From Gemmata obscuriglobus (GTDB taxonomy: Bacteria > Planctomycetota > Planctomycetia > Gemmatales > Gemmataceae), in contig NZ_CP042911.1 in assembly GCF_008065095.1 (NCBI RefSeq), forward strand, positions 7,620,001 to 7,652,000: DNA of 32,000 nucleotides, in the 5' to 3' direction. The translations under genes were made by a program, and so were the position numbers. The notes under the pieces are model-generated. The model did not search any database. It saw only the letters and a program-made list of their open reading frames with translations, and was not told where the DNA came from. Below, piece by piece: positions 2,973-31,457 of the stretch. Position 1 is the first letter of the stretch, and each line of letters starts with the position of its first letter.

Positions 2973-3000
2973 GACCGGCTCCTGCGTTCCGTTCGGAGGT

Positions 3001-6775: not shown

Positions 6776-6806
6776 GGAAGTCGGGTGGGCAAAACGCGGG
6801 ACGCGG

Positions 6807-7193
6807 TCAGAAGAGCGGGCGGTCGGCGCCCAGGTCGTCGTCGCCCTCGTCGTCGTCCAGGTCGAGGTGGTGCATCGACCCGCCGCTCGCGCCGACCACG
6901 TTGGCGCTCGCCGCGGGCAGCTGTTTCGGCAGCTCCCACGGGCGCACCGGCTCGTGCTCGTTGGCGGCCGCCACGGCCCGGGCCGCGGCCTCGTCCACGA
7001 ACGAGATCGCGTACACGCTCGACCCGTGGAACAGCTTGGTCGTGAACCCGTCCGCCGCCGGGATGTCGAGCCGGCCCATCTTGGTGCCGAACATCTCCAC
7101 CTCGGACAGGCGGCCCGCGAGCCGCACGTGCCCCTTCAGCTCGACGACCGCCCACTGCTCCGGCGCGGTGGTGGTGGTGGTTTCGTTGCTCAT
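6807..7193 (-). CDS. hypothetical phage protein with SSB-like acidic C-terminal tail (128 aa)
   Basis: Internal ATG of track ORF 6807..7319 (MSNETTTTTAPEQWAVVELKGHVRLAGRLSE...). Ends ...HHLDLDDDEGDDDLGADRPLF. ATGA overlap with the YqaJ stop. Confidence 0.65.
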   Translation of the reverse strand: MSNETTTTTAPEQWAVVELKGHVRLAGRLSEVEMFGTKMGRLDIPAADGFTTKLFHGSSVYAISFVDEAAARAVAAANEHEPVRPWELPKQLPAASANVVGASGGSMHHLDLDDDEGDDDLGADRPLF

Positions 7194-7891: not shown

Positions 7892-8157
7892 TGCGGGCGC
7901 TCCTCGGGCGCGTTGATCGACTCGATGACGCCGCACCGGTGCAGCGTGTCGACCAACTGGGCGGCCCCGGAGAACCGGCCCACGTCCTCGCACACCCGGG
8001 CCACGAGCGACCGGCAGCGGGTGACGAGCGCGGGGGCTCCCAGGTCGACGGTGCCCGCCGCGCCCACCGGCCCGAGCCGCAGGGAGCCGCAGCGCGGGCA
8101 CCAGAACACCGCCTCGACCACGGTCTGCATCGTGTGCGCGCAGGTCGGACAGCTCAC
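7888..8157 (-). CDS. small Zn-ribbon protein (89 aa)
   Basis: GTG at 8157 overlaps the upstream stop (GTGA). VSCPTCAHTMQTVVEAVFWCPRCGSLRL has a CxxC...CxxC pair. Its stop overlaps the YqaJ start. Confidence 0.5.
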   Translation of the reverse strand: MSCPTCAHTMQTVVEAVFWCPRCGSLRLGPVGAAGTVDLGAPALVTRCRSLVARVCEDVGRFSGAAQLVDTLHRCGVIESINAPEERPQ

Positions 8158-9686: not shown

Positions 9687-9726
9687 GACAGGGCCTCGGG
9701 ACGTGGACACGAACGGACACACACAG

Positions 9727-9798
9727 TCGCGGGGGCAGGGATCGAACCTGCGACCTGCGGGTTATGAGCCCGCCGAGCTGCCACTGCTCCACCCCGCG
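9727..9798 (-). tRNA. tRNA-Met (CAT), initiator-like, embedded in the prophage operon
   Basis: Manual cloverleaf: CGCGGGG TG GAGC AGTGGCA GCTC G GCGGG CTCATAA CCCGC AGGTC GCAGG TTCGATC CCTGC CCCCGCG A. It has A11:U24 and three G:C pairs closing the anticodon stem. No CCA; trailer is CTG. Confidence 0.85.
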
Positions 9799-9833
9799 GA
9801 ACCGAGCGGATACGCCCCGCCCGGCCGAACCGG

Positions 9834-10124
9834 TCACGTCCGCGCTTCGATCTGCTTCACCTTGGCGAGCACCAGGTCGAGGCCGGTGGTGTCGCCGGTG
9901 ACCGCGGCCCGGAGCGTCTCGCTCAGCAGGAACGCGCTCACCCGGGCCTGCTTCGCCAGCAGCAGGCACTGCGGGCACCGGCACGCCTCGAGCGCGGCCG
10001 TCCGGGCGTGCATCACGTTCGCGCTGGTGGCGACCAGCGCCAGGAACGCCGGCTCGGCGGTCGAGCGGTTCTGAGGGTGCGGGCTGCTCTCCGGTTGGGG
10101 TGCGTCGGCGTTCGGCATCACCAT
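9834..10124 (-). CDS. hypothetical phage protein (96 aa)
   Basis: Internal ATG of track ORF 9834..10637 (MVMPNADAPQPESS...EACRCPQCLLLAKQ...). The upstream part of that ORF is off-frame-like. Confidence 0.5.
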   Translation of the reverse strand: MVMPNADAPQPESSPHPQNRSTAEPAFLALVATSANVMHARTAALEACRCPQCLLLAKQARVSAFLLSETLRAAVTGDTTGLDLVLAKVKQIEART

Positions 10125-10159
10125 GAGGCTCTCCGTCTGGCGGTTGAAGGGGAACGGGG

Positions 10160-10540
10160 TCAGGCGGACGCGAGCTGCGCGTCGTCCGGGGCCGGGACGA
10201 ACGGGAGGGGTTCGGTCTCGGAGACCAAGTCCCCTTCGGTCGGATCGAACACGTAGCCGCCGCCGCGCAGGAGCGGCACGTACGGGCCGTCGTACCGGGC
10301 CTCGTCGTCCGGCTCCCACACCCGCAGCCGCGACAGGCCCCGCCCCTCGCGGGCCGCCTGCAGCTCCTCGGCCCGGTACCGGCGGCGCTCGTCGGCCGGG
10401 CGGTGGGGCGGCGGGCCGGCGGGCGCGAGGATCTCCGCCCGCTGCTCCGGGGTGCACTGCGAGAGGATCGCGCGCCCCACGTCCACGAGGTCGCCCTCGG
10501 CCAGGGGGTGCGTGTCGGACGAGTCGGTGTACAGTTGCAC
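10160..10540 (-). CDS. hypothetical phage protein (126 aa)
   Basis: Track ORF 10160..10540 (MQLYTDSSDTHPLAEGDLVDVGRAILSQCTPEQRAEIL...). Balanced composition, unlike the overlapping frames. Confidence 0.6.
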   Translation of the reverse strand: MQLYTDSSDTHPLAEGDLVDVGRAILSQCTPEQRAEILAPAGPPPHRPADERRRYRAEELQAAREGRGLSRLRVWEPDDEARYDGPYVPLLRGGGYVFDPTEGDLVSETEPLPFVPAPDDAQLASA

Positions 10541-10753
10541 GAGGCGTGCTCCGGTGAGCGGCCGGTCCGTGCCGCGAAGGTTGAAGAAAGCTCCCGTTCT
10601 GCGCCCCGCAACGCTCCGTGCGGGCGGGGCGCACCAACCACGAGCAGGCAGCGCCGACCCGGCGCTTCGAGGTGCCGCGAATCAGGTGGCGGCATCACCC
10701 TCCCGACGCCCGCCGTCCGTGGCGGGAGCTCCAGCGCCCGGCGGGCGCGTGTC

Positions 10754-10999
10754 TCAGTTCTGGTTCGTTCCCCACAGGTGCTGCTGCACCTGGGCGGCCT
10801 GGGTCTCCAGTTCCTTCAGCCGCGCGTTCTGGTCGCGGAGCTGCCGGTGCGCCCGCTCCAGGTGCGGCACCAGGTCGCTCGCCCGGCGCTCGGCGCGGTG
10901 GTCGGACCACGCGGCCCAGACCCACAGCGCGAGCCGCACGTCGATCAGCGCGCCGCCGGCGATCGCCAGCACCAGCACGGCCACCAGCAGCGTGTTCAC
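10754..10999 (-). CDS. small membrane-anchored coiled-coil protein (81 aa)
   Basis: GTG at 10999 with GGAGG 7 nt upstream. VNTLLVAVLVLAIAGGALIDVRLALWVWAAW is a TM helix, followed by a heptad-like segment LERAHRQLRDQNARLKELETQAAQVQ. Confidence 0.5.
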   Translation of the reverse strand: MNTLLVAVLVLAIAGGALIDVRLALWVWAAWSDHRAERRASDLVPHLERAHRQLRDQNARLKELETQAAQVQQHLWGTNQN

Positions 11000-11223
11000 G
11001 ACCGCGCCTCCTGGACCCGCTCGGCCTCGCGCTGCGCCGTCTGCTCCGTCTCGATCCCGCGCACCGCCACCTGGAGTTCGCCCAGGAGCAGCCGGGCCTC
11101 GTCGAGCGTCAGCCACCCGATCCCCTGCCCGGTCTCCATCCGCGTCAGCCGGACGACCGCGCCCGGGGTGCGACTGGGGCGCCCAGGGGCGCCGCGGTCC
11201 GCTCTCACTCGCCCGAGTGCCAT
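10996..11223 (-). CDS. hypothetical phage protein (75 aa)
   Basis: ATG at 11223 preceded by AAGGAGA 7 nt upstream. MALGRVRADRG...GWLTLDEARLLLGELQVAVRGIETEQ. Its stop overlaps the next GTG (GTGA). Confidence 0.5.
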   Translation of the reverse strand: MALGRVRADRGAPGRPSRTPGAVVRLTRMETGQGIGWLTLDEARLLLGELQVAVRGIETEQTAQREAERVQEARS

Positions 11224-11438
11224 CGCCGCTCTCCTTAGTGGTTCGTGAACGAACCGGGCCGGGGCCGCCGCCTGCGGGTGGAGGGTGCGGCGACCGACGC
11301 CGTGGAGCACCCGCAGTTGGCACCTCGCTCCCAGCTCGGGGCGCGTCCGTTCGCGCACCCCGGCCCGGTGTGTCTGGCCCGCCGGGGGAGTCACGGCCGG
11401 TCGCCCAACGCGGCGGACTCGACCCCGGACGGGTGCTC

Positions 11439-11768
11439 TCAGGGGTTTCGTGGTTTGCGTTTCTTCCGGGCCATGTGTTCGCGGGCGACATCCTCACCCA
11501 GGGCCAGCGCCGCGATCTCGTCCGGCAGGAAGTAGATCCGCTTGTTCGGCCCCCGCTGGCCGCTCGGCCGGATCACCGAACACAGGCCCATCGCCGCGTA
11601 CTTCCGGAGCGTGTTGCGGCAGACGCCCAGGGTCTCGCACGCTTGGCCCGAGGTCAGGCGTTTGGCGGTCGGCGCGGCGGTAGCGCGGGGAGCGGGCGAG
11701 AGCCGCGTGAGTGCGGCCTCGATCCGGTCCAGTCGCTCAATGACGGCATTGAAATCGGGCGAGGACAT
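11439..11768 (-). CDS. excisionase/AlpA-like helix-turn-helix DNA-binding protein
   Basis: Track ORF 11439..11768. LTSGQACETLGVCRNTLRKYAAMGL...RIYFLPDEI fits the HTH_17/excisionase pattern. Confidence 0.65.
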   Translation of the reverse strand: MSSPDFNAVIERLDRIEAALTRLSPAPRATAAPTAKRLTSGQACETLGVCRNTLRKYAAMGLCSVIRPSGQRGPNKRIYFLPDEIAALALGEDVAREHMARKKRKPRNP

Positions 11769-11771
11769 GGG

Positions 11772-12029
11772 TCACGCTCCCCCGCCGCTGTGTGCGATTT
11801 GCTCCGCCTCGTAGGCGGCCTTGATCGGCGCGACTGCGGGAACGCCGCCTCGCTTCCACGCTTCGAGTTCGGCAACTCGCAGGTAGATCGGGGGCCGCTT
11901 CTTGGCCGCGCCGAACTTGCCGCGGGTGAAAACCCCTTCGTGAACGAGGGCACAAAGCTGCTTGTAGTTGATGTCAAACAGCCTCGCCGCCTCGGGCGCC
12001 GGGAGCCAGGAAGCCACATTAGTTGGCAT
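11772..12029 (-). CDS. excisionase-family helix-turn-helix DNA-binding protein
   Basis: Track ORF 11772..12029. WLPAPEAARLFDINYKQLCALVHEGVF...PIYLRVAELEAW. AAGGAGAAGG RBS upstream. First gene of the leftward operon. Confidence 0.65.
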   Translation of the reverse strand: MPTNVASWLPAPEAARLFDINYKQLCALVHEGVFTRGKFGAAKKRPPIYLRVAELEAWKRGGVPAVAPIKAAYEAEQIAHSGGGA

Positions 12030-12060
12030 GCTTGTTACCCCTTCTCCTTTGCCACTAGTA

Positions 12061-12092
12061 GAAAAGTTAACTTTTCACCCCGGTAATGTCAA
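12061..12092 (-). promoter_or_regulatory. candidate leftward early promoter with overlapping 16-bp perfect palindromic operator
   Basis: Minus strand reads TTGACA (12092-12087), a 17-nt spacer, then TAACTT (12069-12064). The perfect palindrome GAAAAGTTAACTTTTC (12061-12076) overlaps the -10. Local GC is about 43%. Confidence 0.4.
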
Positions 12093-12112
12093 GCCATTCT
12101 GGGCGAAGAAAG

Positions 12113-12142
12113 TTGAAGTGTGGATGAGTGACCAATTAGATT
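12113..12142 (+). promoter_or_regulatory. candidate rightward promoter
   Basis: TTGAAG (12113-12118), an 18-nt spacer, then TAGATT (12137-12142), upstream of the GTG at 12161. Confidence 0.25.
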
Positions 12143-12160
12143 TGTTAACGGGGACGTGTC

Positions 12161-12463
12161 GTGCCTGAACTGTTGCTCAGGGAGCCGCCTGTGGCGAAAT
12201 CGCTTCAGCCACCGAAACCGGAAGACGAGAACAGCCCCTTAGCTGACGGTGGCGATGCCGAAGACCCGAAGTACACCGCGCACCTGAAGGTGCCGCTCGA
12301 GTTTATGGAGCGGCTCACCGAAATTGCTCACAAGATCAATAAGCGCCGTCGTCGGCAGGGGAGGAAGAAGCGAGCGCTCGGCTGGTTTGTGGTCACTCAC
12401 CTTGAGGGCTGGATGAACCGGGCTGAGGCGGAGCTTCAGATGGAAGAGGAGGAGGGCTCTTGA
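12161..12463 (+). CDS. putative ribbon-helix-helix (Arc/CopG-like) regulator (100 aa)
   Basis: Track ORF 12161..12463 (GTG start). AHLKVPLEFMERLTEIAHKINK resembles an RHH strand-helix. Divergent from the leftward operon. Confidence 0.45.
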   Translation: MPELLLREPPVAKSLQPPKPEDENSPLADGGDAEDPKYTAHLKVPLEFMERLTEIAHKINKRRRRQGRKKRALGWFVVTHLEGWMNRAEAELQMEEEEGS

Positions 12464-12629
12464 TCTTGATCGCCGTGCGGTAGTCGCACGACTCTTCCTC
12501 GCCCAACTCGCCGCTCCACGCCTCAAAGAGGATGAACCGGCAATCCGGTGAGACCTGCCTCGCGTACCGGGTTACGAATGCCCGGAACTGTTCTTCTGTG
12601 ATGTCCCCGTTGTTGTCCGAAACAGCCAC
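12393..12629 (-). CDS. hypothetical protein (78 aa), convergent with and overlapping the RHH gene
   Basis: GTG at 12629 with AAGGAG 8 nt upstream. VAVSDNNGDITEEQFRAFVTRYARQVSPDCRFILFEAWSGELGEEESCDY. The last ~24 codons lie antisense to 12161..12463 and look non-coding. Confidence 0.35.
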   Translation of the reverse strand: MAVSDNNGDITEEQFRAFVTRYARQVSPDCRFILFEAWSGELGEEESCDYRTAIKIKSPPPLPSEAPPQPGSSSPQGE

Positions 12630-12759
12630 GGTCCCACTCCTTTGGCCGACTCGACACCCGTTCACACGCGAACTGAACTCTAACCAACGATTCGCGCTCT
12701 GCCAACCGCCGTATGTGTTCCAAATGCTTTCGGAACACCCCGCTCAAAGGACACGCCCG

Positions 12760-13680
12760 ATGTTCGGACCGAACGCCAAGCCGCTTGACCTGTGCACCTG
12801 GTTCGTTCCCCACCTTGCGCGATCAATGGCTCTGTCAGGTTGCGACGAGATCGACGAGACCTACACGTGCGGCCCGTTCTCCATCACTTTCAAGGGGCGT
12901 AACGACGACATTGGGGCCGACCCGAGCTTGCCGCGAAAAGTCCGGCGAACATCGGATAAAGTGCAGGACGTGTACCGCGCGTTCGTGGCGATCTGGAACG
13001 ACCCGAACCGCCGGCCGGACCCGATCATGCCGAAGCCCATTCGGACCTGGCTGCTCGCCGAGTACGCTCGCGCAGAGCCGGACAAGACGCAGCGGAAAGA
13101 CGCCCCCCGGAGCAGTATTCAGCACGCGCTAAGCGATCTTCAGGAGCTTGGCATCATTCACCAGCACGGGGACGGCGGTTGGGTCATGGGTCCCCGGCCC
13201 GAGCCGAAACAGGGCACCATTACCGACGACGAGGGTGTTCCGAACGAAAACGGAACACATAGCCCACTTGAACAGGCGGCCACCATCACCCATGCTTCCC
13301 ACGTCGGCGGTGCGGATGTCGTGCCGCCGCGAACGGGAGCGCAGGACATGTTCGGTAAGCTGATCTGGGTGCCGGGCGAGAAGGACGACTTCGAGACGGG
13401 CGGGCTGGTGATCACCGACGACACCGGCACGAGTCACCTGGCCGAAGGGAAGCAAGAGCGGGTGCGGTACTCGGGCCGCACCGGACGGCCCGCGGCGCCC
13501 CTCGCGGTGCGGTGCGAACTGGTCACCGTCGACGACTCGGGGCGGCACAAGGTGGCGGTCGTCAAAATCAAGGGGCCGGAGGGCACCAAACAGATCCGCG
13601 TCCGCGTGCTGGGCGACTGGCAACTCGCGGGCCGCATGAGCGACCGCGAAGAGCCGGCCACACTCGCCGCGAGCAACTGA
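12760..13680 (+). CDS. hypothetical protein with winged-helix-like segment (306 aa), upstream of and overlapping the integrase start
   Basis: Internal ATG of track ORF 12532..13680 (MFGPNAKPLDLCTWF...); an alternative ATG is at 12724. IQHALSDLQELGIIHQHGDGGWVMG looks wHTH-like. Lower GC than its surroundings. Its TGA overlaps the integrase ATG. Confidence 0.6.
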   Translation: MFGPNAKPLDLCTWFVPHLARSMALSGCDEIDETYTCGPFSITFKGRNDDIGADPSLPRKVRRTSDKVQDVYRAFVAIWNDPNRRPDPIMPKPIRTWLLAEYARAEPDKTQRKDAPRSSIQHALSDLQELGIIHQHGDGGWVMGPRPEPKQGTITDDEGVPNENGTHSPLEQAATITHASHVGGADVVPPRTGAQDMFGKLIWVPGEKDDFETGGLVITDDTGTSHLAEGKQERVRYSGRTGRPAAPLAVRCELVTVDDSGRHKVAVVKIKGPEGTKQIRVRVLGDWQLAGRMSDREEPATLAASN

Positions 13681-14951
13681 TGGGGCGCGTTCACAGGAAG
13701 CAGTACACGAAGCCCATCCCCGCCGGGGCCGAGCGGGTCACGGTCAAGGGCGTGCCGTGCGTGCGCTGGCGCGGCAAGTCGAAGCAGTGGCAGGTGGGCG
13801 TCGTGCTGCCGGGCGGCCGGTGCCGCCTCGAATCGGCCAACTGGTACGTCACCTACTTCGACCACACCAAGGGCAAAGAGGTGACCGTTCCGGGATACGC
13901 CGACAAGGCGGCTTCAGAAGCGCTCCTCGCCCAGCTCGTCCGCACCAGCGCCCGCGTCGACGCGGGCCTGTTGCCCCCGGAAGCCGTCCGGCCCCGACTC
14001 TCGCTCACCGAACTCCTGGACCGCTGGCACCGCCACGTGAAGCACGGGGGCGCGTCGGACGAGGGCGCCCGCCGGCAGCGGCGGCACGCCCAGGCCGTGT
14101 GCGACGGGGTGAGCGCGGCCAAGCCGGCCGACCTGACGCCGTCGGCGGTCCTGGAGTGGATCGAGGCGCAGCGGGAGAGCGGCGGCCGATCGGGCGACGG
14201 CATCTCGGTCGGCACCGCCGCGAACTACATCGGCGCGGCCAAGTCCTTCACGCGCTGGTGCTGCGTCGTCGAGAAGTGCGAGCCGGTGGACCACCTGTCC
14301 GGACTCGAAAAGAGCGGCCCCGGGCCGGACGACCGTGTCCACGTCCGCCGATCGCTCTTGCCCGACGACCTGGACAAGCTCCTCGCGGCCGCCCGGGCGA
14401 GCACGGCGGAGGTGTACGGGCTCACCGGACCGGAGCGGCACGCGCTCTACCTCACGGCCTGCTCGACGGGGCTCCGCGCCTCGGAGCTGGCCCGCCTCAA
14501 GCCCGAGCACTTCGATTTGGTCGGCGCCACGGTTACCGTTCATCGGCCCGCGAAGACGAAGAAGCGAGCCACCGACGTGCTGCCGCTCGGCCCGGACGTC
14601 GTCGAGGCGCTCCGCCCGATCCTGGCCGCGGTGGGAAAGGGGACCGTCTGGCCGAACCGCGGCGCGGAGTCCCAGGCGTGGTGGCTGCTCGGCGCGCGGC
14701 TCATCCGCGCCGACCTGGTGGCCGCGGGCATTCCGCCGACCGCCCCGGACGGCCGGGTGTACGACTTCCACTCGCTCCGGGGCCAGTTCGCGACGGATCT
14801 GGACCGCGCTGGCGTCAGTCTGCCCCGCGCGCAAAAGCTGATGCGGCACTCGACGCCGGACCTCACCGCGAAGCACTACCACCGCCCGGAATCGGACGAG
14901 CTGGCCGCGGACGTGGCGAAGCTGCGCCGGGGCAAGCCGGCGGGCTCGTAG
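13680..14951 (+). CDS. int: tyrosine-type site-specific integrase
   Basis: Internal ATG of track ORF 13512..14951 (MGRVHRKQYTKPIP...). C-terminal catalytic signature ...HSLRGQFATDL...LMRHSTPDLTAKHY (HxxR...Y). Adjacent to a tRNA 3' end. Confidence 0.9.
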   Translation: MGRVHRKQYTKPIPAGAERVTVKGVPCVRWRGKSKQWQVGVVLPGGRCRLESANWYVTYFDHTKGKEVTVPGYADKAASEALLAQLVRTSARVDAGLLPPEAVRPRLSLTELLDRWHRHVKHGGASDEGARRQRRHAQAVCDGVSAAKPADLTPSAVLEWIEAQRESGGRSGDGISVGTAANYIGAAKSFTRWCCVVEKCEPVDHLSGLEKSGPGPDDRVHVRRSLLPDDLDKLLAAARASTAEVYGLTGPERHALYLTACSTGLRASELARLKPEHFDLVGATVTVHRPAKTKKRATDVLPLGPDVVEALRPILAAVGKGTVWPNRGAESQAWWLLGARLIRADLVAAGIPPTAPDGRVYDFHSLRGQFATDLDRAGVSLPRAQKLMRHSTPDLTAKHYHRPESDELAADVAKLRRGKPAGS

Positions 14952-15080
14952 CTTGCCGGCAAGCTTGCCGTCCGTTCGTGATTCCCGGTGCGTCTCAGTG
15001 AACAATCGGACATGCAAGCTGAAGGTGCGGAACTATGGTAATCCGCTTGATTTCGGTGCGAATCGCTTGGTTTTCAAGAG

Positions 15081-15152
15081 TGGGTCCGGTGGGAGTCGAA
15101 CCCACTTCCAAGGTGTTATGAGCACCCTGCTCGACCGTTGAGCTTCAGACCC
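15081..15152 (-). tRNA. tRNA-Met (CAT; elongator Met or lysidine-modified Ile2 cannot be distinguished by eye)
   Basis: Manual cloverleaf: GGGTCTG AA GCTC AACGGTC GAGC A GGGTG CTCATAA CACCT TGGAA GTGGG TTCGACT CCCAC CGGACCC A. No CCA; trailer is CTC. The 3' end faces the integrase. Confidence 0.85.
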
Positions 15153-25347: not shown

Positions 25348-26769
25348 TCACACCTCGATCTTCTTCCACTTTCCGCTTGCGAACCGCAGTGCGAAAAAGG
25401 TCCCCCGCAGCCACAGGTCGGCGCACATCGCGACCCACGCGCCCAGCAGGCCCATGTCCGCACCTCGGACCGTCCCGAGCGGGCCGAGATCCACCTGCGG
25501 GGCGGTCATCAGGTACGCCAGCGGAATCCGCACGCCCAAGAACCCGAGCCAACTGAACAGCACCGGCACGCGCGCGTCGCCGGCCCCGCGCAGCGCGGCG
25601 GTAAAAATGATCTGACTCGCCAGAGCCGGCATCGCGCACGCGATCAGCCGCAGCGCCGGTGCGCCGGTGTCGACGATGGGTTGCAGGTCGGCGCCCGGAC
25701 AGAACACCTTGAACATCGGTTCCGCCAGGAGCACGAACAGCACGCCCATGCAGCACATGAGCCCCCCGCCGATCGCGAACGCCACCCACACGCTCCGGGC
25801 GGCGCGGTCCGGGGTGCGGGCGCCCAGGTTCTGCCCCACCAGTGTCATCGCAGCGGTGCCGAACGCCGCCCCGGAGAGGAACCCGAGGGCTTCCCAGCGC
25901 AGCGCGATCCCGTGCGCGGACGCTGCGGTGTCGCCGAGCCGGTTCACGATGCTGAGGAACCACAACTGGCAGAACGCGGCCGACAGGCTGTCGATCGCGG
26001 CCGGAACGCTGACCCACAGCAAACGCCGGATCAGGCCGGTATCGGGAACCAAGTTGGCGAGGTGCAGCTTCAGCCCCGACCGGCCGCGCGAGAGAATGAC
26101 GAGTAGTGTGATGCACCCGATTACGTGACTGAGCCCCGTGCCCAGTGCGATCCCGATGAACCCGAAGCCCCGGAACGGCCCGAACCCGAAGCACAGCCCC
26201 CACGCCAACGGCACGTTCAGCACGGCCACGAGCCCGAGCACCTTCAGCCCGGTGCGCGTGTCCCCGGCGCCCGCGAGGCACGCGGCGCACGCGGACTCGG
26301 TGATTTGGAACGCGAGAAGGGCCGCCAGGGGCGTCAGGAACTCGACGCACACCCGCGCCGCGTCGCCCTCGAGCTTCAGGGCGCGGATCAGGTCCGGCAG
26401 CCCCACCAGTGCCGCGACCGCGCCCACAACGCCGAACACAACGGCCAAAACGATGGACTGGCCGGCGGCCCGGTTGGCGAGTGCGAAGTCCCGCGCCCCA
26501 ACGAAACGGGCCACAAGGGCGGTGCTCCCGACGCTGACCAGAACCGTGTAGCTCGACACGAACCAGTACAGGTATCCGGCCGTGTTCAACGCAGACAGGT
26601 ACCCGACCCGGGCCGCCGGATCGGATACCTGAAATCGTCCCGCGAGAAACTGGTCGGAGAGCTGCACGACGAGGTGCAGGTATTGCTGTGCAAGCGCGGG
26701 CAGAGCGAGGACGAGCACCTGCCGCCCGAGCGGGCGAGATAGCGCGTCCTGCGGAGCCGATGTGTCCAT
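25348..26769 (-). CDS. MATE-family multidrug/toxic-compound efflux transporter
   Basis: Track ORF 25348..26775 (GTG); ATG at 26769 is preferred. About 12 hydrophobic segments. N-terminal LALPALAQQYLHLVVQLSDQFLAG is typical of MatE. Confidence 0.85.
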   Translation of the reverse strand: MDTSAPQDALSRPLGRQVLVLALPALAQQYLHLVVQLSDQFLAGRFQVSDPAARVGYLSALNTAGYLYWFVSSYTVLVSVGSTALVARFVGARDFALANRAAGQSIVLAVVFGVVGAVAALVGLPDLIRALKLEGDAARVCVEFLTPLAALLAFQITESACAACLAGAGDTRTGLKVLGLVAVLNVPLAWGLCFGFGPFRGFGFIGIALGTGLSHVIGCITLLVILSRGRSGLKLHLANLVPDTGLIRRLLWVSVPAAIDSLSAAFCQLWFLSIVNRLGDTAASAHGIALRWEALGFLSGAAFGTAAMTLVGQNLGARTPDRAARSVWVAFAIGGGLMCCMGVLFVLLAEPMFKVFCPGADLQPIVDTGAPALRLIACAMPALASQIIFTAALRGAGDARVPVLFSWLGFLGVRIPLAYLMTAPQVDLGPLGTVRGADMGLLGAWVAMCADLWLRGTFFALRFASGKWKKIEV

Positions 26770-26816
26770 GCCCACATCTTAGTGACCGCGGCGCCGACCG
26801 CCGGTCGCCCCAACCC

Positions 26817-27200
26817 TTACTTCTTGGCGGTCTTCCGGCGGGTCTTGGCGACGGCAGCGGTCGGCGACACCGGCGGCGCCTCGGGCTTGGCCCGAAGCAC
26901 CACCCGGAAGCTCCCGAGCATCAGCACCCCGAGCACGTCGGGCGTGGTTCCCGGGGTGAAGATGTCCGGCCGCAGCCGGTAAATCACCCGGCGCCCGTCC
27001 TTCTCGTCTTCCAGCACGCCCGCCTGCCGCATCACCCCGAGATGGTGCGACATGTTGACCATCTTAATCTTCACTAGTTCTGCAAGGTTCCCGACGTGTT
27101 CGGGGCCTTTGGCCAACTGCCACAGGACACGCAGACGGGTCGGCTCGGCCACGGCGGCGAGCAGCGCGGCCACCTTGCGAGCTTCGGCAAACTCGGTCAT
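26817..27200 (-). CDS. ArsR/SmtB-family transcriptional regulator
   Basis: Track ORF 26817..27218 (GTG); ATG at 27200 is preferred. LLAAVAEPTRLRVLWQLAKGPEHVGNLAELVKIKMVNMSHHLGVMRQAGVLEDEKDGRRVIYRL is the HTH_20 pattern. Confidence 0.85.
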   Translation of the reverse strand: MTEFAEARKVAALLAAVAEPTRLRVLWQLAKGPEHVGNLAELVKIKMVNMSHHLGVMRQAGVLEDEKDGRRVIYRLRPDIFTPGTTPDVLGVLMLGSFRVVLRAKPEAPPVSPTAAVAKTRRKTAKK

Positions 27201-27481
27201 TTCGGCACCAGTGGACACCGCAACCTGCGGCGAGGGCGGGCAATTTGTGGAGTTGAAATAGTATAGATCGAAATGGCGTCATGCCACCGTCCAAACGGAA
27301 ATAGGAATGAATTGAGCCGCTTGGGGGCGGTGCATTTGCGTCGTTCGGACGGATCGGTAATGTGGTACAAGAATGAGGGCCGGCAGGAGTCGCACCCGCA
27401 TGTCCCGAGGTACGAACGCGGTGCCTTTCTGTGTCGTGCCACACTGGCGAATGATCTTGGAGGTAAACATTCGCTCTGTGG

Positions 27482-27498: not shown

Positions 27499-27522
27499 TC
27501 ACTGCTTCATTCGTGCTCACAG

Positions 27523-27595
27523 GCGGCGCGGGGGGAGTCGAACCCCTCACCTGGGCCGTCACAGGGCCACGTGCTACCGCTACACCACATGCCGC
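27523..27595 (-). tRNA. tRNA-His (GTG)
   Basis: G-1 + CGGCATG TG GTGT AGCGGTA GCAC G TGGCC CTGTGAC GGCCC AGGTG AGGGG TTCGACT CCCCC CGCGCCG C. G-1:C73 is the His hallmark. One A5-C68 mismatch. No CCA. Confidence 0.75.
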
Positions 27596-27680
27596 ATCGC
27601 AAGAACTGAAGAATCCTCCGACCGACCGCTCCGGTTCAAAGCCGCGCGCGCGGCGTTCCGATTCGCGATTGTCAGTTGAG

Positions 27681-27754
27681 TGATCCCGGGTGGAATCGAA
27701 CCACCGACCTCCTCCGTGTCAGGGAGGCGCCTTGAACCACTGGGCCACGGGATC
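27681..27754 (-). tRNA. tRNA-Val (GAC)
   Basis: GATCCCG TG GCCC AGTGGTTCA AGGC G CCTCC CTGACAC GGAGG AGGTC GGTGG TTCGATT CCACC CGGGATC A. No CCA. Confidence 0.85.
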
Positions 27755-27847
27755 GACCGTTCGAGCGCGGAACGTAGCGTGCAGGGTTCGGAGCGTTCGC
27801 ATCTTACGTTCCGAACCCCGCGCGATACGTTCCGCGCGACCTTCAGG

Positions 27848-27936
27848 CGGAGGGGGTGGGATTCGAACCCACATACCCGTTTAAGGGCAACCGCTTTAGC
27901 AGAGCGGCCCGGCCAAGCCGTATCCGGCTCCCGTCC
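27848..27936 (-). tRNA. tRNA-Ser (GCT), class II
   Basis: GGACGGG AG CCGG ATACGGCTTGG CCGG G CCGCT CTGCTAA AGCGG, long variable arm TTGCCCTTAAACGGGTAT, then GTGGG TTCGAAT CCCAC CCCCTCC G. C4-C69 mismatch in the acceptor stem. Confidence 0.7.
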
Positions 27937-27984
27937 GTCGGCCCGCTCAAGTGAGCGGGCGGTGATCGGCGCGCGTGCGGCGAG

Positions 27985-28040
27985 TGCGGGGTGCGGAACT
28001 AACCCCAGTCGGCCGGACCTTTGGTAAGCCCGCACCCCGC
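27985..28040 (-). pseudogene. tRNA-like remnant (56 nt) lacking a D arm, CCA anticodon-like loop
   Basis: GCGGGGT ... ACCCCGC A forms a perfect 7-bp acceptor-like helix. Inside it are GGGCT TACCAAA GGTCC and a degenerate T region (GGGGTTAGTTC). Confidence 0.4.
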
Positions 28041-28065
28041 GCCCGCCGCACGCGCACCGATCGAG

Positions 28066-28137
28066 TGGACCCGCCGGGAGTCGAACCCGGGCTGCCGGCA
28101 TGCCATACCGGCGTCATCCCGCCTAGACCACGAGCCC
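28066..28137 (-). tRNA. tRNA-Ala (GGC)
   Basis: GGGCTCG TG GTCT AGGCGGGA TGAC G CCGGT ATGGCAT GCCGG CAGC CCGGG TTCGACT CCCGG CGGGTCC A. The G3:U70 Ala identity pair is present. Confidence 0.8.
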
Positions 28138-28177
28138 ACAGCAACAGGAGTCCGGCCCGGTGCGCCCCGAACTCCAG

Positions 28178-28245
28178 TGGAACCGCGGGGAGTCGAACCC
28201 CGTGGCCGTGCTTGCAAGGCACAGCCCTCGCCCGCGAGCGATCCC
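28178..28245 (-). tRNA. tRNA-Ala (TGC) with shortened D-arm region (68 nt)
   Basis: GGGATCG [CTCGCGGGCGAGGGC] TGTGC CTTGCAA GCACG GCCA CGGGG TTCGACT CCCCG CGGTTCC A. G3:U70 is present. Only 15 nt lie between the acceptor and anticodon stems. Confidence 0.55.
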
Positions 28246-28326
28246 GTTTGACGAGCTTCGAGTTCGGGTTCCGAGTTGAGAGCGGCGCCGATTCGCGCCC
28301 CAACTTGAAACCTGGAACCCGCTGAG

Positions 28327-28408
28327 TGACCTCGGTGGGAGTCGAACCCACACGCCTCGCGGCAGCCGGCTCTCAACCGACTCTGGCTACCAGTTACAGC
28401 ACGAGGTC
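28327..28408 (-). tRNA. tRNA-Leu (GAG), class II
   Basis: GACCTCG TG CTG TAACTGGTAGC CAG A GTCGG TTGAGAG CCGGC TGCCGCGAGGCGT GTGGG TTCGACT CCCAC CGAGGTC A. Confidence 0.85.
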
Positions 28409-28467
28409 ATTCGTCGCGAGCGGTGTCGTGAACGAACCGTCCGTTCACGACGCACCGCCACCAACAG

Positions 28468-28549
28468 TGGCCCAGGAGGGAGTCGAACCCTCACGCCTTA
28501 CGGCACCGGCTTCTGAGACCGGGGTGACTACCAGTTCCACCACCGGGCC
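28468..28549 (-). tRNA. tRNA-Leu (CAG), class II
   Basis: GGCCCGG TG GTG GAACTGGTAGT CAC C CCGGT CTCAGAA GCCGG TGCCGTAAGGCGT GAGGG TTCGACT CCCTC CTGGGCC A. Confidence 0.85.
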
Positions 28550-28575
28550 AACGTTCGCGCCGCTGCGGCGCGGAG

Positions 28576-28644
28576 TCGCGGAGCCTGGGACTCTAACCCA
28601 GCAACCGGGCATATGAAACCCAGCCGAGCGCCTGCCCGCCCGCG
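28576..28644 (-). tRNA. degenerate tRNA-Met-like (CAT): short D region, non-canonical T loop, acceptor bulge; possibly a pseudogene
   Basis: CGCGGGC [GGGCAGGCGCTCGGC] TGGGT TTCATAT GCCCG GTTG CTGGG TTAGAGT CCCAG GC(T)CCGCG A. The T loop lacks the TTCRA consensus. Confidence 0.4.
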
Positions 28645-28662
28645 AAACATCAGCTCGTCCAG

Positions 28663-28730
28663 TTGCGGGCCTCAGAGTCGAACTGAGCAGCCAGGCTTAT
28701 GAGACCCGGCCGAGCTCCGGCCCGCCCGCA
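28663..28730 (-). tRNA. tRNA-Met-like (CAT) with shortened D-arm region (68 nt)
   Basis: TGCGGGC [GGGCCGGAGCTCGGC] CGGGT CTCATAA GCCTG GCTG CTCAG TTCGACT CTGAG GCCCGCA A. Paralogous to 28576-28644. Confidence 0.5.
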
Positions 28731-28745
28731 ATCGTTTCGGTCCAG

Positions 28746-28820
28746 TGGTGACGGTGGGATTCGAACCCACACTGTCCACGTTCTGAGCGTGGCGACTCCT
28801 GCCAGTTGGTCTACATCACC
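28746..28820 (-). tRNA. class I (short variable arm) tRNA with Leu anticodon CAG
   Basis: GGTGATG TA GAC CAACTGGCAGGA GTC G CCACG CTCAGAA CGTGG ACAGT GTGGG TTCGAAT CCCAC CGTCACC A. The cloverleaf is well formed, but the variable region is only 5 nt. Confidence 0.7.
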
Positions 28821-28873
28821 TCATCAAACCTGCGGCGGCTCGACCGCCGCGCCGGCCGCTCTCGCGCCGGCAG

Positions 28874-28946
28874 TGACCCGTGGGGGAATCGAACCCCCGT
28901 TTACAGGTTGAGAACCTGTCGTCCTGAACCGCTAGACGAACGGGCC
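28874..28946 (-). tRNA. tRNA-Glu (CTC)
   Basis: GGCCCGT TC GTCT AGCGGTTCA GGAC G ACAGG TTCTCAA CCTGT AAAC GGGGG TTCGATT CCCCC ACGGGTC A. Confidence 0.85.
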
Positions 28947-28983
28947 GTATATCACACGCTCACATCACAACCGTCTCATCAGG

Positions 28984-29056
28984 CGACTCGTACGGGAGTT
29001 GAACCCGTGTCTCCAGGTTGACAACCTGACATCTTGAACCGTTAGACGAACGAGCC
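28984..29056 (-). tRNA. tRNA-Asp (GTC)
   Basis: GGCTCGT TC GTCT AACGGTTCA AGAT G TCAGG TTGTCAA CCTGG AGAC ACGGG TTCAACT CCCGT ACGAGTC G. G73 discriminator. Confidence 0.8.
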
Positions 29057-29090
29057 GTTAGTTCCCGGTCTGTACCCAACTCCTAACAAG

Positions 29091-29175
29091 TGCCCCGGGT
29101 GGGAATCGAACCCACATTGTCCGTGAGGACGGCTGCTTTACAGGCAGCCTGGCGGCCCACCGCGCGTCCGGAGGC
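29091..29175 (-). tRNA. tRNA-Tyr (GTA), class II, irregular acceptor/D region
   Basis: GCC(T)CCGG ... GCTGC CTGTAAA GCAGC CGTCCTCACGGACAAT GTGGG TTCGATT CCCAC CCGGGGC A. The acceptor pairs perfectly only if one T on the 5' strand is bulged. I could not fold the D arm canonically. Confidence 0.6.
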
Positions 29176-29195
29176 GTAACCGTCGGTCGTCGGAG

Positions 29196-29269
29196 TAGCA
29201 CGGGAGGGATTCGAACCCACACGCACCAAGGTTTGAGCTTGGCCGCACTCCCGGTTGGCGTACCGTGCC
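29196..29269 (-). tRNA. class I (short variable arm) tRNA with Leu anticodon CAA
   Basis: GGCACGG TA CGC CAACCGGGAGT GCG G CCAAG CTCAAAC CTTGG TGCGT GTGGG TTCGAAT CCCTC CCGTGCT A. 5-nt variable region. One U-U mismatch in the T stem. Confidence 0.65.
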
Positions 29270-29364
29270 ACACGATCATTGCGACATTCGGAACACGGAG
29301 TTCGGAATCAAGAACTCGAACACAACACCGATCAACTCACTCCGCTGATACACCCGCTCAGCCA

Positions 29365-29435
29365 AGCCCTCGGCGGGAATCGAACCCGCGCGTCCGTCAT
29401 ACCAAAACGGCAAGCTGCCACTACATCACAAGGGC
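29365..29435 (-). tRNA. tRNA-Thr (GGT)
   Basis: GCCCTTG TG ATGT AGTGGCA GCTT G CCGTT TTGGTAT GACGG ACGC GCGGG TTCGATT CCCGC CGAGGGC T. Mismatch at 11:24 in the D stem. Confidence 0.75.
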
Positions 29436-29491
29436 CGTACATATCACGTCTTCAACTTCATGTTCCGAACCCCTCGTTCCGAATTCGGGAG

Positions 29492-29562
29492 AGCGCCCAG
29501 CGGGAGTCGAACCCGCACATCCGCCATGGCAAGGCGATAGGCTACCGCTACATCATGGGCGC
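29492..29562 (-). tRNA. tRNA-Gly (GCC)
   Basis: GCGCCCA TG ATGT AGCGGTA GCCT A TCGCC TTGCCAT GGCGG ATGT GCGGG TTCGACT CCCGC TGGGCGC T. U73 discriminator. Confidence 0.8.
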
Positions 29563-29585
29563 GTATCAATCACATCACAAACCAG

Positions 29586-29659
29586 TGGAAGCGGTGGGAA
29601 TCGAACCCACGTACACCTGCTTAAGAGGCAGGCCCCTAGCCAACGTCGGACACACTTCC
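29586..29659 (-). tRNA. tRNA-Lys (CTT)
   Basis: GGAAGTG TG TCCG ACGTTGGCT AGGG G CCTGC CTCTTAA GCAGG TGTAC GTGGG TTCGATT CCCAC CGCTTCC A. Confidence 0.85.
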
Positions 29660-29678
29660 GGCTCGCCCTCGCGGGCAG

Positions 29679-29751
29679 CGGTCCACACGGGAGTCGAACC
29701 CGCACCCTTCCGCTCGACAGGCGGCTGCTCTACCAACGGAGCTTCTGGACC
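29679..29751 (-). tRNA. tRNA-Asp (GTC), second and structurally different copy
   Basis: GGTCCAG AA GCTC CGTTGGTA GAGC A GCCGC CTGTCGA GCGGA AGGGT GCGGG TTCGACT CCCGT GTGGACC G. Mismatches at 7:66 and 27:43. Confidence 0.7.
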
Positions 29752-29771
29752 GTACACGTCACTTCGACCAG

Positions 29772-29853
29772 CAGGTGGCGGAGGAATCGAACCCCACAGG
29801 ACGGAGCCGTCGGTTTTGGAGACCGAGTGCGTTCCCAGACGCGTTCACCACCT
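29772..29853 (-). tRNA. Trp-like tRNA (CCA) with 13-14-nt variable region and irregular D arm (82 nt)
   Basis: AGGTGGT(G) AACGCGTCTGGGAACGCAC TCGGT CTCCAAA ACCGA CGGCTCCGTCCTG(T) (T)GGGG TTCGATT CCTC(C) (C)GCCACCT G. A1:U72, G73 and the anticodon arm resemble tRNA-Trp. An alternative fold has an 8-bp acceptor and a 4-bp T stem. Confidence 0.6.
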
Positions 29854-29864
29854 GTAATTCCCAG

Positions 29865-29937
29865 TACCCCGTGCGGGAGTCGAACCCGACCTAAGCGGCT
29901 TGAAAGACCGCCGACCTCACCGGAAGTCGAACGGGGC
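29865..29937 (-). tRNA. tRNA-Glu (TTC)
   Basis: GCCCCGT TC GACT TCCGGTGA GGTC G GCGGT CTTTCAA GCCGC TTAGG TCGGG TTCGACT CCCGC ACGGGGT A. Mismatch at 49:65. Confidence 0.8.
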
Positions 29938-30368
29938 GTTCCCGTGTCGTCCGCCCCCCGGCCACAAAACGAAACCGGCCGGGGGTCGCTTGTACCCCCG
30001 GCCGGCGCGGTCGCCACTCACATGGCTCGCCAGGGGTTCATCCGCTCGTATCGCTCAGACCGCTCAGAGCCGCTTCGACTTCGACTTCAAGACGCGCGGC
30101 CGTATCAAGACCCAGACCTAACGCATAACCCGCTTCCCAACCGGCCGCGAGATACGTCGCCTTCGCGGCGACGGCATCACTCGTCGCTTGAAGTTCGGTG
30201 CTCGCGTGCCAGAGGGTCATGGTTGTATCGTGTGTAAGCTGTGATCCGTTGTTGTTGACCGCGGGGATTGTTGCCCCTCACTCGCGGTGTACGCTAGATA
30301 GACGCGGAACCTATAAGCGGGTTCGCACGAAACCGATTTTATTTTGTCCCCGTGTTGGGAACCGAACG

Positions 30369-31457
30369 GTGAGCGAGTTGGAACGCTGGATGCGGCACGC
30401 CCTGGCGCTGGCCGCCCGGGGCCGCGGGGCCGTCGAGCCGAACCCGATGGTCGGGGCGGTGGTGCTCGACCCGACCGGGAAGCCGGTCGGCGAGGGCTGG
30501 CACCAGAAGTTCGGCGGCCCGCACGCGGAGGTGTTCGCCCTTCAGGCCGCTGGGGCACGTGCCCGCGGCGGAACACTCCTCGTCACCCTTGAGCCGTGCT
30601 GCCACCACGGGAAAACGCCGCCCTGTACCGATGCGGTGCTGCGGGCCGGTGTGGCGCGCGTGGTCGCGGCGATGGCCGACCCCTTCCCGCGCGTCGCCGG
30701 GGGCGGGTTGGCGCTCCTCCGCGCCGCCGGGGTGGACGTTCAAGTCGGGTTGTGCGAAGCGGACGCGCGGGCGCTCAACGCGCCGTACCTGAAGTTGCTG
30801 AGCACCGGGCGCCCGTGGGTCCACGCAAAATGGGCCATGACGCTCGACGGCAAGCTCGCGGCCCGGACCGGCGACTCCAAATGGATCAGCGGTGCCGAGT
30901 CGCGCCGGCGCGTCCACGAGTTGCGCGGGCGGCTCGACGCGATCCTCGTGGGGCGCGGAACGGTCGTCGCGGACGACCCGCTCCTAACGGCCCGGCCCGC
31001 GGGCGTGCGCGTGCCCGCGCGGGTGGTGCTGACCGCGTCCGGAGAGCTACCGGCGGCGTGTCAGTTACGCGCCACCGCGCGCGAGGCGCCCGTCCTCGTG
31101 TACACCGCCAACCCCGGAAAGCTCGGCGGGTGGGCCGCCGACGGCGCGGAGGTCGTCGGCTTCGGTGAGCTGACCCTCGACGCCGTTCTCGCGGATCTGG
31201 GCCGGCGGCGCTTCACAAACGTGCTGCTGGAGGGCGGCGCGGGGCTATTGGGGGCGGCTCGTGATGCGGACGCGATCGACGAGTTTCACGTGTTTATCGC
31301 GCCAAAGGTGGTCGGCGGAAGTGCGGCGCTGACGCCCGTCGGCGGTACGGGCGCCGCGCGGATGGCGGAGGCGCTGACGCTCGAAGGGGTGACGTTCGAG
31401 CCGTCCGGCGCGGACGTGTACGTCCACGGGTTCGCGCCGGGTCGGGTCGTTGTGTAA
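30369..31457 (+). CDS. ribD: bifunctional riboflavin biosynthesis protein RibD (pyrimidine deaminase / uracil reductase)
   Basis: Track ORF 30198..31457. GTG at 30369 is preferred (VSELERWMRHALALAARG...); an alternative ATG is at 30390. NPMVGAVV, HAEVFAL and TLEPCCHHGKTPPC form the CMP/dCMP deaminase zinc site. The C-terminal part is an RibD_C reductase region. Confidence 0.9.
   Translation: MSELERWMRHALALAARGRGAVEPNPMVGAVVLDPTGKPVGEGWHQKFGGPHAEVFALQAAGARARGGTLLVTLEPCCHHGKTPPCTDAVLRAGVARVVAAMADPFPRVAGGGLALLRAAGVDVQVGLCEADARALNAPYLKLLSTGRPWVHAKWAMTLDGKLAARTGDSKWISGAESRRRVHELRGRLDAILVGRGTVVADDPLLTARPAGVRVPARVVLTASGELPAACQLRATAREAPVLVYTANPGKLGGWAADGAEVVGFGELTLDAVLADLGRRRFTNVLLEGGAGLLGAARDADAIDEFHVFIAPKVVGGSAALTPVGGTGAARMAEALTLEGVTFEPSGADVYVHGFAPGRVVV

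Follow-up and report, generated by a model that had tools for sequence, protein, structure and literature searches.

Which kind of transfer RNA (tRNA) is encoded by an 82-nucleotide (nt) minus-strand gene with the tryptophan (Trp) anticodon CCA in Gemmata obscuriglobus? The gene, hereafter tRNA(CCA), lies in a 32,000-nt stretch of that genome (NCBI RefSeq assembly GCF_008065095.1, contig NZ_CP042911.1, positions 7,620,001 to 7,652,000; hereafter the window). A first-pass annotation had noted an acceptor end and an anticodon arm like those of bacterial tRNA-Trp, together with a long variable region and a possible acceptor/T division of 8 and 4 base pairs (bp) (8/4) in place of the canonical 7/5, the geometry of allo-tRNAs that are serylated through a long variable arm. 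Our comparative analysis indicates that tRNA(CCA) is a genuine, conserved 8/4-type tRNA, which appears to combine the Trp identity set with a short extra arm resembling that of tRNA-Tyr and to fall within the known non-canonical 8/4 class. To our knowledge, the 8/4 acceptor/T split is known only from tRNA-Ser, tRNA-His and allo-tRNAs that accept Ser or Ala.

Acceptor and T stems of tRNA(CCA)

The elements on which the first-pass annotation relied are all present in the sequence: the length of 82 nt, A1-U72, G73, the anticodon arm UCGGU-CUCCAAA-ACCGA, a long variable region (14 nt as measured) and a D stem GCGU/ACGC with displaced junctions, which is offset by additional nucleotides on either side. 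Including the pair next to it, the D stem reads C11.A26, G12-C25, C13-G24, G14-C23 and U15-A22. The anticodon stem has 5 bp, and the position beyond it is C27.C45; in some other subfamilies this stem has 6 bp. The eighth acceptor pair is G8-C74 in gene numbering, equivalent to 8:65 in tRNA numbering, and the would-be fifth T-stem pair, 49:65, is U.C. The gene encodes no CCA end, C-T-G coming next after the discriminator (Table 1).

ARAGORN called a tRNA-Trp(cca) at 29771-29853, with one extra 3' base (minus strand) relative to Rfam, and drew it as a 7/5 molecule with three bases between the acceptor and D stems, a C.A mismatch in the D stem, an unpaired 13-nt variable loop and a U.C mismatch as the first T-stem pair. 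A canonical cloverleaf is thus drawn only at the cost of a mismatched T stem, as had been anticipated. The Rfam general tRNA model, which reported 14 of the 21 window tRNAs at its gathering threshold, did not report tRNA(CCA) at that threshold. No Rfam family reached threshold on it, the top match within the clan being tRNA-Sec (39.4 bits, cut-off 47). This match mostly reflects the extra arm, because the ordinary Tyr and Ser tRNAs of the surrounding tRNA array also prefer the tRNA-Sec model. Our covariance model R1 scores the window gene at 107.9 bits.

We scanned 185,579 species genomes with a pattern for CCA tRNAs whose variable region is long. Of the 45 loci matched, 10 are planctomycete arrays; among named isolates, the pattern matched Gemmata algarum only. 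A metagenome scan contributed many divergent members. We could parse 47 distinct sequences with the D loop CUGGGA, which is invariant but formed part of the second search pattern, and 37 of these also have the T arm GGGG-UUCGAUU-CCUC (hereafter the subfamily), within which this arm is invariant. G73 and A1-U72 are each found in 46 of the 47. Nearly all of these tRNAs sit in dense arrays (up to 25 tRNAs per fetched stretch), and spacers between array tRNAs measure 5 to 116 nt. The covariance model built on tRNA(CCA) matched 39 relatives at 49-111 bits, of which 38 are of the 8/4 type and 38 have the anticodon CCA. The sole non-CCA match is a CUG (Gln) gene in locus L067 (1553-1631), which has an 8/4-type body (A1-U72, G73, CUGGGA D loop, short extra arm), shares an array with a CCA copy and looks like an anticodon-shift paralogue.

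We compared 17 distinct window-type sequences, whose acceptor, anticodon and T arms do not vary except for one base-65 variant (L040/L093). Changes are limited to the connector, a compensatory U15-A22 to C15-G22 exchange, 11:26, and the variable loop and tail. Flanking coding DNA is just ~78-82% identical. Invariant arms between diverging flanks indicate that tRNA(CCA) is a real gene under selection.

The 8/4 and 7/5 folds make base 65 pair with base 8 or base 49, respectively, and were compared in two independent alignments. The ungapped mini-helix alignment (A2) consists of the first 8 bases and the last 25, with positions set by distance from the ends and no structural model imposed. Among its 21 distinct branches, 8:65 is paired in 14 (G-C in 7, A-U in 4, U-A in 2 and U-G in 1) and unpaired in 7, all G.A; 49:65 is paired in 7. 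Column permutation gave p=0.009 for 8:65 and p=0.65 for 49:65. In the model-guided alignment (A5), 39 members were aligned to a covariance model built from 8 window-type sequences with the 8/4 structure; this alignment leans towards its model, although the two competing pairs use the same columns. Here 8:65 is paired in 28 of 36 relatives (GC in 20, AU in 4, UA in 2, UG in 2 and other in 8, every exception being G.A) and 49:65 in 7 of 36. In the modelled cloverleaf, 97.3% of the cells are paired and 20 of its 24 pairs have changed in a compensatory way; none of 500 shuffles did as well. All five D-stem pairs show compensatory changes (11:26 is UA in 17, UG in 10, CG in 2 and other in 10), four of the five anticodon-stem pairs covary, and the two modelled variable-stem pairs are 100% paired, as GC, CG, UA, AU or GU. 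A plain MAFFT alignment was set aside because it moved length differences towards the 5' end and put the acceptor stem out of register.

The control set comprised 107 further CCA tRNAs, largely of phage origin, whose variable regions are long. These are ordinary 7/5 molecules, in which 49:65 is the only possible pair in 95 of the 107 and base 8 is U or C in all but 7; the 8/4 signal is therefore specific to the tRNA(CCA) family. In evaluated folding energy, the window sequence favours the 8/4 cloverleaf over a 7/4 version by 2.6-2.7 kcal/mol. Covariation and the control thus support the alternative that the first-pass annotation had offered, an 8-bp acceptor stem with a 4-bp T stem. Variants with G.A, among them some with U49-A65, may adopt the 7/5 fold or keep a non-canonical terminal pair. 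Two features fit this fold less well: the minimum-energy single-sequence fold is not a cloverleaf (z=-1.07, uninformative as usual for tRNAs), and the absence of U8 and A14 requires a different tertiary core. A separate group of 90-nt CCA tRNAs (L046, L049, L062-L064, L072, L074, L091 and L094) may be a 9/3-like variant: the acceptor stem may extend to 9 bp, the variable arm measures 25 nt and the T stem has just ~2-3 pairs (CCGG-UUCGAAU-CCUC).

The variable region is itself structured. In the subfamily it measures 11-18 nt and keeps a constant format of a 1-nt spacer, a 2-4 bp stem, a 3-8-nt loop and a Y-R-Y tail, the stems covarying as GG/CC, GC/GC, GU/AC, GGC/GCC and GUGC/GCAC. This layout appears to be that of bacterial tRNA-Tyr, not that of tRNA-Ser. 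Because the format is conserved and covaries across 37 sequences, a random insertion into tRNA-Trp was rejected. The fallback of the first-pass annotation, a Trp tRNA with an unusual insertion, survives in its Trp identity set; the insertion is replaced by a conserved structural class.

Trp or Ser identity

We consider it probable that tRNA(CCA) reads UGG and is charged with Trp by the host tryptophanyl-tRNA synthetase (TrpRS). CCA and G73 are the major bacterial Trp determinants; the bacterial identity set also lists A1-U72, G2-C71, G3-C70, G4-C69 and G5-C68, and a comparative analysis cited in the same paper predicted U31-A39 as a determinant (PMC9976931). tRNA(CCA) carries four of the five acceptor-stem determinants, 4:69 being U-A, and the match of CCA, G73, A1-U72, G2-C71, G3-C70, G5-C68 and U31-A39 to this set favours Trp. 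Within the family (n=39), 1:72 is AU in 38, 2:71 is GC in 36 and 3:70 is GC in 36. Trp is favoured also because the body is tied to CCA in 38 of 39 matches, unlike allo-tRNAs, which cover 35 codons, since seryl-tRNA synthetase (SerRS) ignores the anticodon. Arrays with tRNA(CCA) hold, in addition, distinct tRNA-Ser genes of ordinary type, which have G1-C72 and a longer variable arm (Ser-GCU in the window), and tRNA(CCA) joins an arm of only 2-3 bp to A1-U72; both points again favour Trp.

Extra arms also occur on other CCA tRNAs. Among the matches listed, more than 120 viral contigs (L096-L215, IMG/VR) carry 7/5 tRNAs with CCA, G73, A/G1-U72 and a 9-26-nt variable region, and extra-arm tRNA-Trp appears to be common in phages; we found no description of it in the literature searched. 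Should these listed phage tRNAs be functional, the Trp system would tolerate extra arms widely.

A viral scan in which the D loop and T arm were fixed and the anticodon was left free recovered phage tRNA-Ser genes with the anticodons GCU, GGA and CGA. Phage (8/4) tRNA-Ser were described by Mukai et al. 2017, who grouped them with the (8/4) allo-tRNAs (PMC5389517), and they appear to be the nearest relatives of tRNA(CCA) among those found. They score 40-55 bits against the covariance model, compared with 23 for the window's own tRNA-Ser, and have the acceptor, connector, D-loop and T-arm design in common with tRNA(CCA). In L229, the anticodon arm of a phage tRNA-Ser(CGA), CCGGUCUCGAAAACCGG, is one base off a Trp arm.

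These likenesses, the supported 8/4 architecture, the near invariance of G73 and the insertion of Ser in E. coli by 8/4 allo-tRNAs bearing Leu anticodons (Mukai et al., PMC5389517) are what an allo-tRNA-like missense tRNA would predict. SerRS would then recognise G73 and the extra arm and charge Ser, alone or in competition with TrpRS, and some UGG codons would be read as Ser when the array is expressed. We judge Ser or dual charging to be distinctly unlikely, and with it the first-pass proposal of serylation through a long variable arm, given the short arm, an anticodon stem and a D arm that depart from the allo-tRNA definition, the fixed CCA and the Trp identity set. The variable stem of tRNA(CCA) has only 2-3 bp and is followed by a 3-nt 3' tail; Himeno et al. 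reportedly found in 1990 that E. coli tRNA-Tyr, with its 3-bp variable stem, was not serylated until that stem was lengthened. Bacterial tRNA-Ser has G1-C72 near-universally, where tRNA(CCA) has A1-U72, and the anticodon is fixed and does not drift. Moreover, the gene is conserved in its clade at a fixed chromosomal site, which is hard to square with the harm that constitutive Trp-to-Ser errors would do.

Several points nevertheless weigh against Trp charging. Ser tRNAs, too, have G73 and an extra arm, and it is to Ser tRNAs that tRNA(CCA) is structurally nearest. A1-U72 recurs in two phage 8/4 tRNA-Ser, both from contig L225, so this pair alone is no proof of Trp identity. Finally, U4-A69 stands in place of G4-C69, which is important for the TrpRS of B. 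subtilis.

The tRNA array and its role

tRNA(CCA) belongs to a dense array of tRNA genes (19 genes in 2.4 kilobases (kb); 18-25 in the fetched stretches of relatives) between a downstream pair of MatE and ArsR-type genes and the divergent upstream gene ribD (Table 1). Nine of the ten planctomycete arrays (L006, L007, L008, L010, L017, L018, L020, L031 and L040) agree with the window in gene order (Glu-UUC, Trp-CCA, Asp, Lys, Gly, Gly, Thr, Leu, Tyr and so on), and the tenth, L003, is a divergent Gemmataceae array ordered differently. L010 (Gemmata algarum JC673) shares 95.8% identity with the window across 4 kb, which places the source of the window in Gemmata algarum or a close relative. Alignments to many related loci extend past the array into the MatE/ArsR genes and ribD, and blastn synteny into ribD reaches ~31439 in most. 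The array thus occupies a fixed chromosomal site (MatE-ArsR-array-RibD) in a Gemmataceae-like planctomycete clade.

Table 1. Parts of the tRNA(CCA) gene, the array that contains it and the conserved neighbours, in window positions.
Feature	Positions	Strand	Details
tRNA(CCA) gene, whole	29772-29853	-	82 nt, RNA = AGGUGGUGAACGCGUCUGGGAACGCACUCGGUCUCCAAAACCGACGGCUCCGUCCUGUGGGGUUCGAUUCCUCCGCCACCUG; sequence, ARAGORN, covariance model R1
Acceptor stem, 5' strand	29846-29853	-	RNA positions 1-8 (AGGUGGUG); position 8 pairs with 74 (canonical 65)
Connector and D arm	29828-29845	-	2-base connector A9 A10; stem 11-15/22-26, loop CUGGGA
Anticodon arm	29810-29826	-	5-bp stem UCGGU/ACCGA, loop CUCCAAA; anticodon CCA at 29817-29819 (TGG on + strand)
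Variable region	29796-29809	-	14 nt (CGGCUCCGUCCUGU); 1-nt spacer, 2-3 bp stem (GG/CC or GGC/GUC), loop, 3-nt tail
T arm	29781-29795	-	4-bp stem GGGG/CCUC (one G.U), loop UUCGAUU
Acceptor stem, 3' strand	29773-29780	-	CGCCACCU
Discriminator G73	29772	-	
Array of 19 tRNA genes	27522-29937	-	ARAGORN; tRNA(CCA) is second, after Glu-UUC
ArsR-type HTH gene	26817-27218	-	conserved downstream neighbour; Pfam, blastn synteny
MatE transporter gene	25348-26775	-	conserved downstream neighbour; Pfam, blastn synteny
ribD (deaminase + RibD_C)	30198-31457	+	conserved upstream neighbour, divergent from array; Pfam

The setting is that of a bacterial chromosome. The window is ~72% G+C and encodes TPR and WD40 repeat proteins, a DUF7133/cytochrome c protein, MatE and RibD; no mobility gene adjoins the array, and blastn of the region against 50,697 phage records gave no match. 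A phage origin of the window was rejected on its gene content.

Long tRNA arrays have been defined by ~20 or more tRNA genes at a density of >=2 per kb on one strand (Tran 2016, PMC4758250), and are described as supernumerary, with horizontal spread and a patchy distribution (Santamaria-Gomez et al. 2021, PMC8421152). Arrays in Planctomycetes are mentioned without detail in both papers. Like the published arrays, the one in Gemmata is dense and single-stranded, with ~19-25 genes and little periodicity, and is probably supernumerary; it differs in keeping its chromosomal neighbours and in that many of its members are structurally irregular. Its distribution among species genomes is patchy, and its flanking synteny is conserved.

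We consider tRNA(CCA) most likely to be part of an extra, parallel tRNA set rather than the only tRNA-Trp of the cell. Four observations suggest supernumerary status. Canonical initiator and elongator tRNA-Met genes lie outside the array, which itself holds an irregular 69-nt Met. The metagenomic contig L069 has both a canonical 74-nt tRNA-Trp and an 8/4 one. Only ~10 planctomycete species genomes were matched in the scan, even though the window-type sequence is invariant at the pattern positions. Finally, two Gemmataceae genomes are reported to have 83-88 tRNA genes. In L069, the stretch 1423-6170 also contains an EF-Tu gene (3273-4451) flanked by tRNA genes, the other open reading frames being small and unannotated, and L059 holds a neighbouring 7/5 paralogue, which has this D arm as well but a short variable loop.

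The conserved synteny is unlike the horizontally moving arrays of the literature and tells against this view, since it leaves room for a housekeeping role. Were tRNA(CCA) the sole housekeeping tRNA-Trp, the lineage would decode all UGG codons with an 8/4 extra-arm tRNA. The fixed position beside ribD in related genomes, which argues for vertical inheritance, would agree with this, as would the lack of a second tRNA-Trp within the 32-kb window or any fetched window-type locus. We nonetheless hold it to be very improbable: with only ~10 planctomycete genomes matched, other Gemmataceae must use a different tRNA-Trp; the array has no Arg, Pro, Phe, Ile, Asn, Gln or Cys tRNAs and is hence an incomplete set; and Met is duplicated outside it.

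As part of an extra set, tRNA(CCA) could still work as an adaptor, and we infer that it is used in translation. The 12-bp acceptor/T branch, although split 8/4, would keep the length that is measured by EF-Tu, RNase P and the CCA-adding enzyme. The D stem of 5 bp follows a two-base connector, and its short loop, which contains GG, would still be able to dock on the T loop; the anticodon stem has the normal 5 bp, and the short structured variable arm resembles that of tRNA-Tyr in geometry. Host TrpRS would then charge the molecule, which would decode UGG. The array of ~19-20 tRNAs is inherited along with its neighbours in the Gemmata-related planctomycete clade.

It seems unlikely, on the other hand, that tRNA(CCA) is a conserved non-adaptor, with the array RNAs acting as decoys or substrates for tRNA-targeting toxins, as donors in non-ribosomal transfer or as regulatory RNAs, or persisting as near-silent cargo. 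The many irregular members of the array, among them 69-nt tRNAs whose D arms are reduced and short-variable-loop bodies with Leu anticodons, would suit such a role, as would the irregular polycistronic tRNAs that Mukai et al. described as charged but unused in translation, or uncharged, and the poor transcription of long arrays in the few cases studied (PMC8421152). Set against these are purifying selection on the 12-bp branch, the GG/T-loop elbow bases, U33, the 7-nt anticodon loop, A37 and the discriminator, conservation of the anticodon itself, and the finding that Anabaena array tRNAs are functional under translational stress (PMC8421152).

Other members of the array depart from the norm in their own ways. 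Two 69-nt tRNAs (Ala-UGC and Met-CAU; 28177-28245 and 28662-28730) have reduced D arms, very small in Met-CAU. In the ARAGORN drawing, Ala-UGC, which has G3.U70 and A73, pairs 8 bp in the acceptor and 4 bp in the T stem, so that tRNA(CCA) is not alone in the array in having the 8/4 design. The Leu anticodons CAA and CAG are found with A73 on type I (short-variable-loop) bodies of 75-76 nt (29195-29269 and 28745-28820), alongside ordinary long-arm Leu-CAG (28467-28549) and Leu-GAG (28326-28408). The tRNA-Tyr has an odd C1 start and C73 in the ARAGORN frame (29092-29173); with the frame shifted by 2 bases (29090-29175) it has G1-C72 and A73, as in normal bacterial tRNA-Tyr, and one acceptor C.C mismatch.

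All 21 window tRNA genes lack an encoded CCA end. C-T-(G/C) follows the discriminator in 19 of them (the exceptions being Thr-GGU and Tyr), and many are preceded by (T)AC, which suggests processing signals shared across these genes. A near-perfect hairpin of ~100 nt (27963-28062; -104.7 kcal/mol, z=-11.9) lies in the spacer between Ala-GGC and Ser-GCU and is followed by a second small hairpin; on both strands, its matches to microRNA families are sub-threshold only. Upstream of the array, between ribD and the first array tRNA, the minus strand has a terminator-like, G+C-rich 13-bp hairpin with a U-rich tail (29974-30006). Farther away, an integrated phage-like element (765-15152) adjoins the elongator tRNA-Met (15080-15152). 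It encodes ParB-like, phage metallopeptidase, PrimPol/DUF3987, YqaJ recombinase, AAA_24 and tyrosine integrase (13512-14951) proteins, and an initiator-type tRNA-fMet (9727-9798; C1.A72, GGG/CCC anticodon stem) lies inside it.

Comparison with known tRNA classes

In the literature searched, we found neither an 8/4 tRNA with the full Trp identity set nor an extra arm on tRNA-Trp, and papers on planctomycete tRNA arrays, allo-tRNAs and long-variable-arm tRNA-Trp included none on tRNA(CCA) or its array. The main text of Mukai 2017 mentions neither Trp nor Planctomycetes. If tRNA(CCA) is charged with Trp, then TrpRS, EF-Tu and the ribosome accept the 8/4 geometry for one more amino acid. It would also be a natural case of a body changing identity, with a one-base anticodon step between Ser (CGA) and Trp (CCA) and a common G73, and a natural scaffold that might serve genetic-code engineering. 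Charging with Ser would instead make it a conserved source of Trp-to-Ser mistranslation, fixed in the chromosome. In either case, attention is drawn to a conserved planctomycete array of irregular tRNAs and to the more than 120 listed phage contigs with extra-arm tRNA-Trp.

With low confidence, we suggest a wider scenario: an 8/4 lineage related to the phage (8/4) tRNA-Ser would have switched its identity to Trp, or to an ambiguous Ser/Trp, while a remodelled short extra arm was kept functional. Together with the irregular members of the array (8/4 tRNA-Ala, short-loop 'Leu'), it would form a vertically inherited second tRNA set of non-canonical structure in Gemmata-like planctomycetes. Such a set might be switched on under particular conditions or escape tRNA-targeting nucleases.

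Of the allo-tRNA definition (Mukai 2017), tRNA(CCA) has the 12-bp branch split 8/4 (or 9/3) and a discriminator that is G73 or U73. It lacks an anticodon stem longer than 5 bp (6 bp), having 5 bp, and a long D stem with a tetraloop, having a 4-5 bp stem and the 6-nt loop CUGGGA. The allo-tRNA-like geometry suggested at first pass thus holds for the 8/4 split and for the kinship to phage (8/4) tRNA-Ser, and fails for the anticodon stem and the D arm. Compared with the long variable arm of the Ser and Sec type, the 14 nt of tRNA(CCA) make it type II by length, with a stem of just 2-3 bp.

Bacterial tRNA-Sec (RF01852) likewise has an 8-bp acceptor stem, an extra arm and G73. A tRNA-Sec identity was rejected: the branch has 12 bp and not 13, the anticodon is CCA and not UCA, and the score of 39.4 bits is below 47. 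The 6-bp D stem with a 4-nt loop of tRNA-Sec, against 4-5 bp and 6 nt here, weighs in the same direction.

Canonical bacterial tRNA-Trp has in common with tRNA(CCA) the anticodon arm GGUCUCCAAAACC, A1-U72, G2-C71, G3-C70, G5-C68, G73 and U31-A39. It differs in length (~76 nt versus 82), in its 7/5 split and in a variable region of 5 nt in place of a structured 14 nt, and tRNA(CCA) departs from it further in having no U8/A14, a short 6-nt D loop and U4-A69. The variable arm finds its counterpart in bacterial tRNA-Tyr, which has a 1-nt spacer, a ~3-bp stem, a 3-4-nt loop and a 3-nt tail. In a related array (L089), the tRNA-Tyr reaches 43.9 bits with the model; its variable arm follows this format, and its T stem is likewise 4 bp long (GAGG/CCUC). 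tRNA(CCA) is set apart from tRNA-Tyr by G73 in place of A73, CCA in place of GUA and A1-U72 in place of G1-C72, G73 being listed as a TyrRS antideterminant (PMC9976931).

For phages, the family pattern matched one viral contig, and that match is 7/5; with no 8/4 CCA member in this viral scan, a phage-borne 8/4 CCA type was rejected. The overall body plan is nonetheless that of phage (8/4) tRNA-Ser, which, like tRNA(CCA), has an 8-bp acceptor stem with G8-C65, a two-base A-N connector (A-U, compared with A9 A10 in tRNA(CCA)), a 5-bp D stem, the D loop CUGGG(A), a one-base linker, a 5-bp anticodon stem, the T arm GGGG-UUCGAUU-CCUC, G73 and a place in tRNA clusters. The phage molecules differ in their Ser anticodons and in variable stems of 4-6 bp with 0-1 tail bases, versus 2-3 bp and a 3-nt tail, whereas tRNA(CCA) resides in cellular chromosomal arrays.

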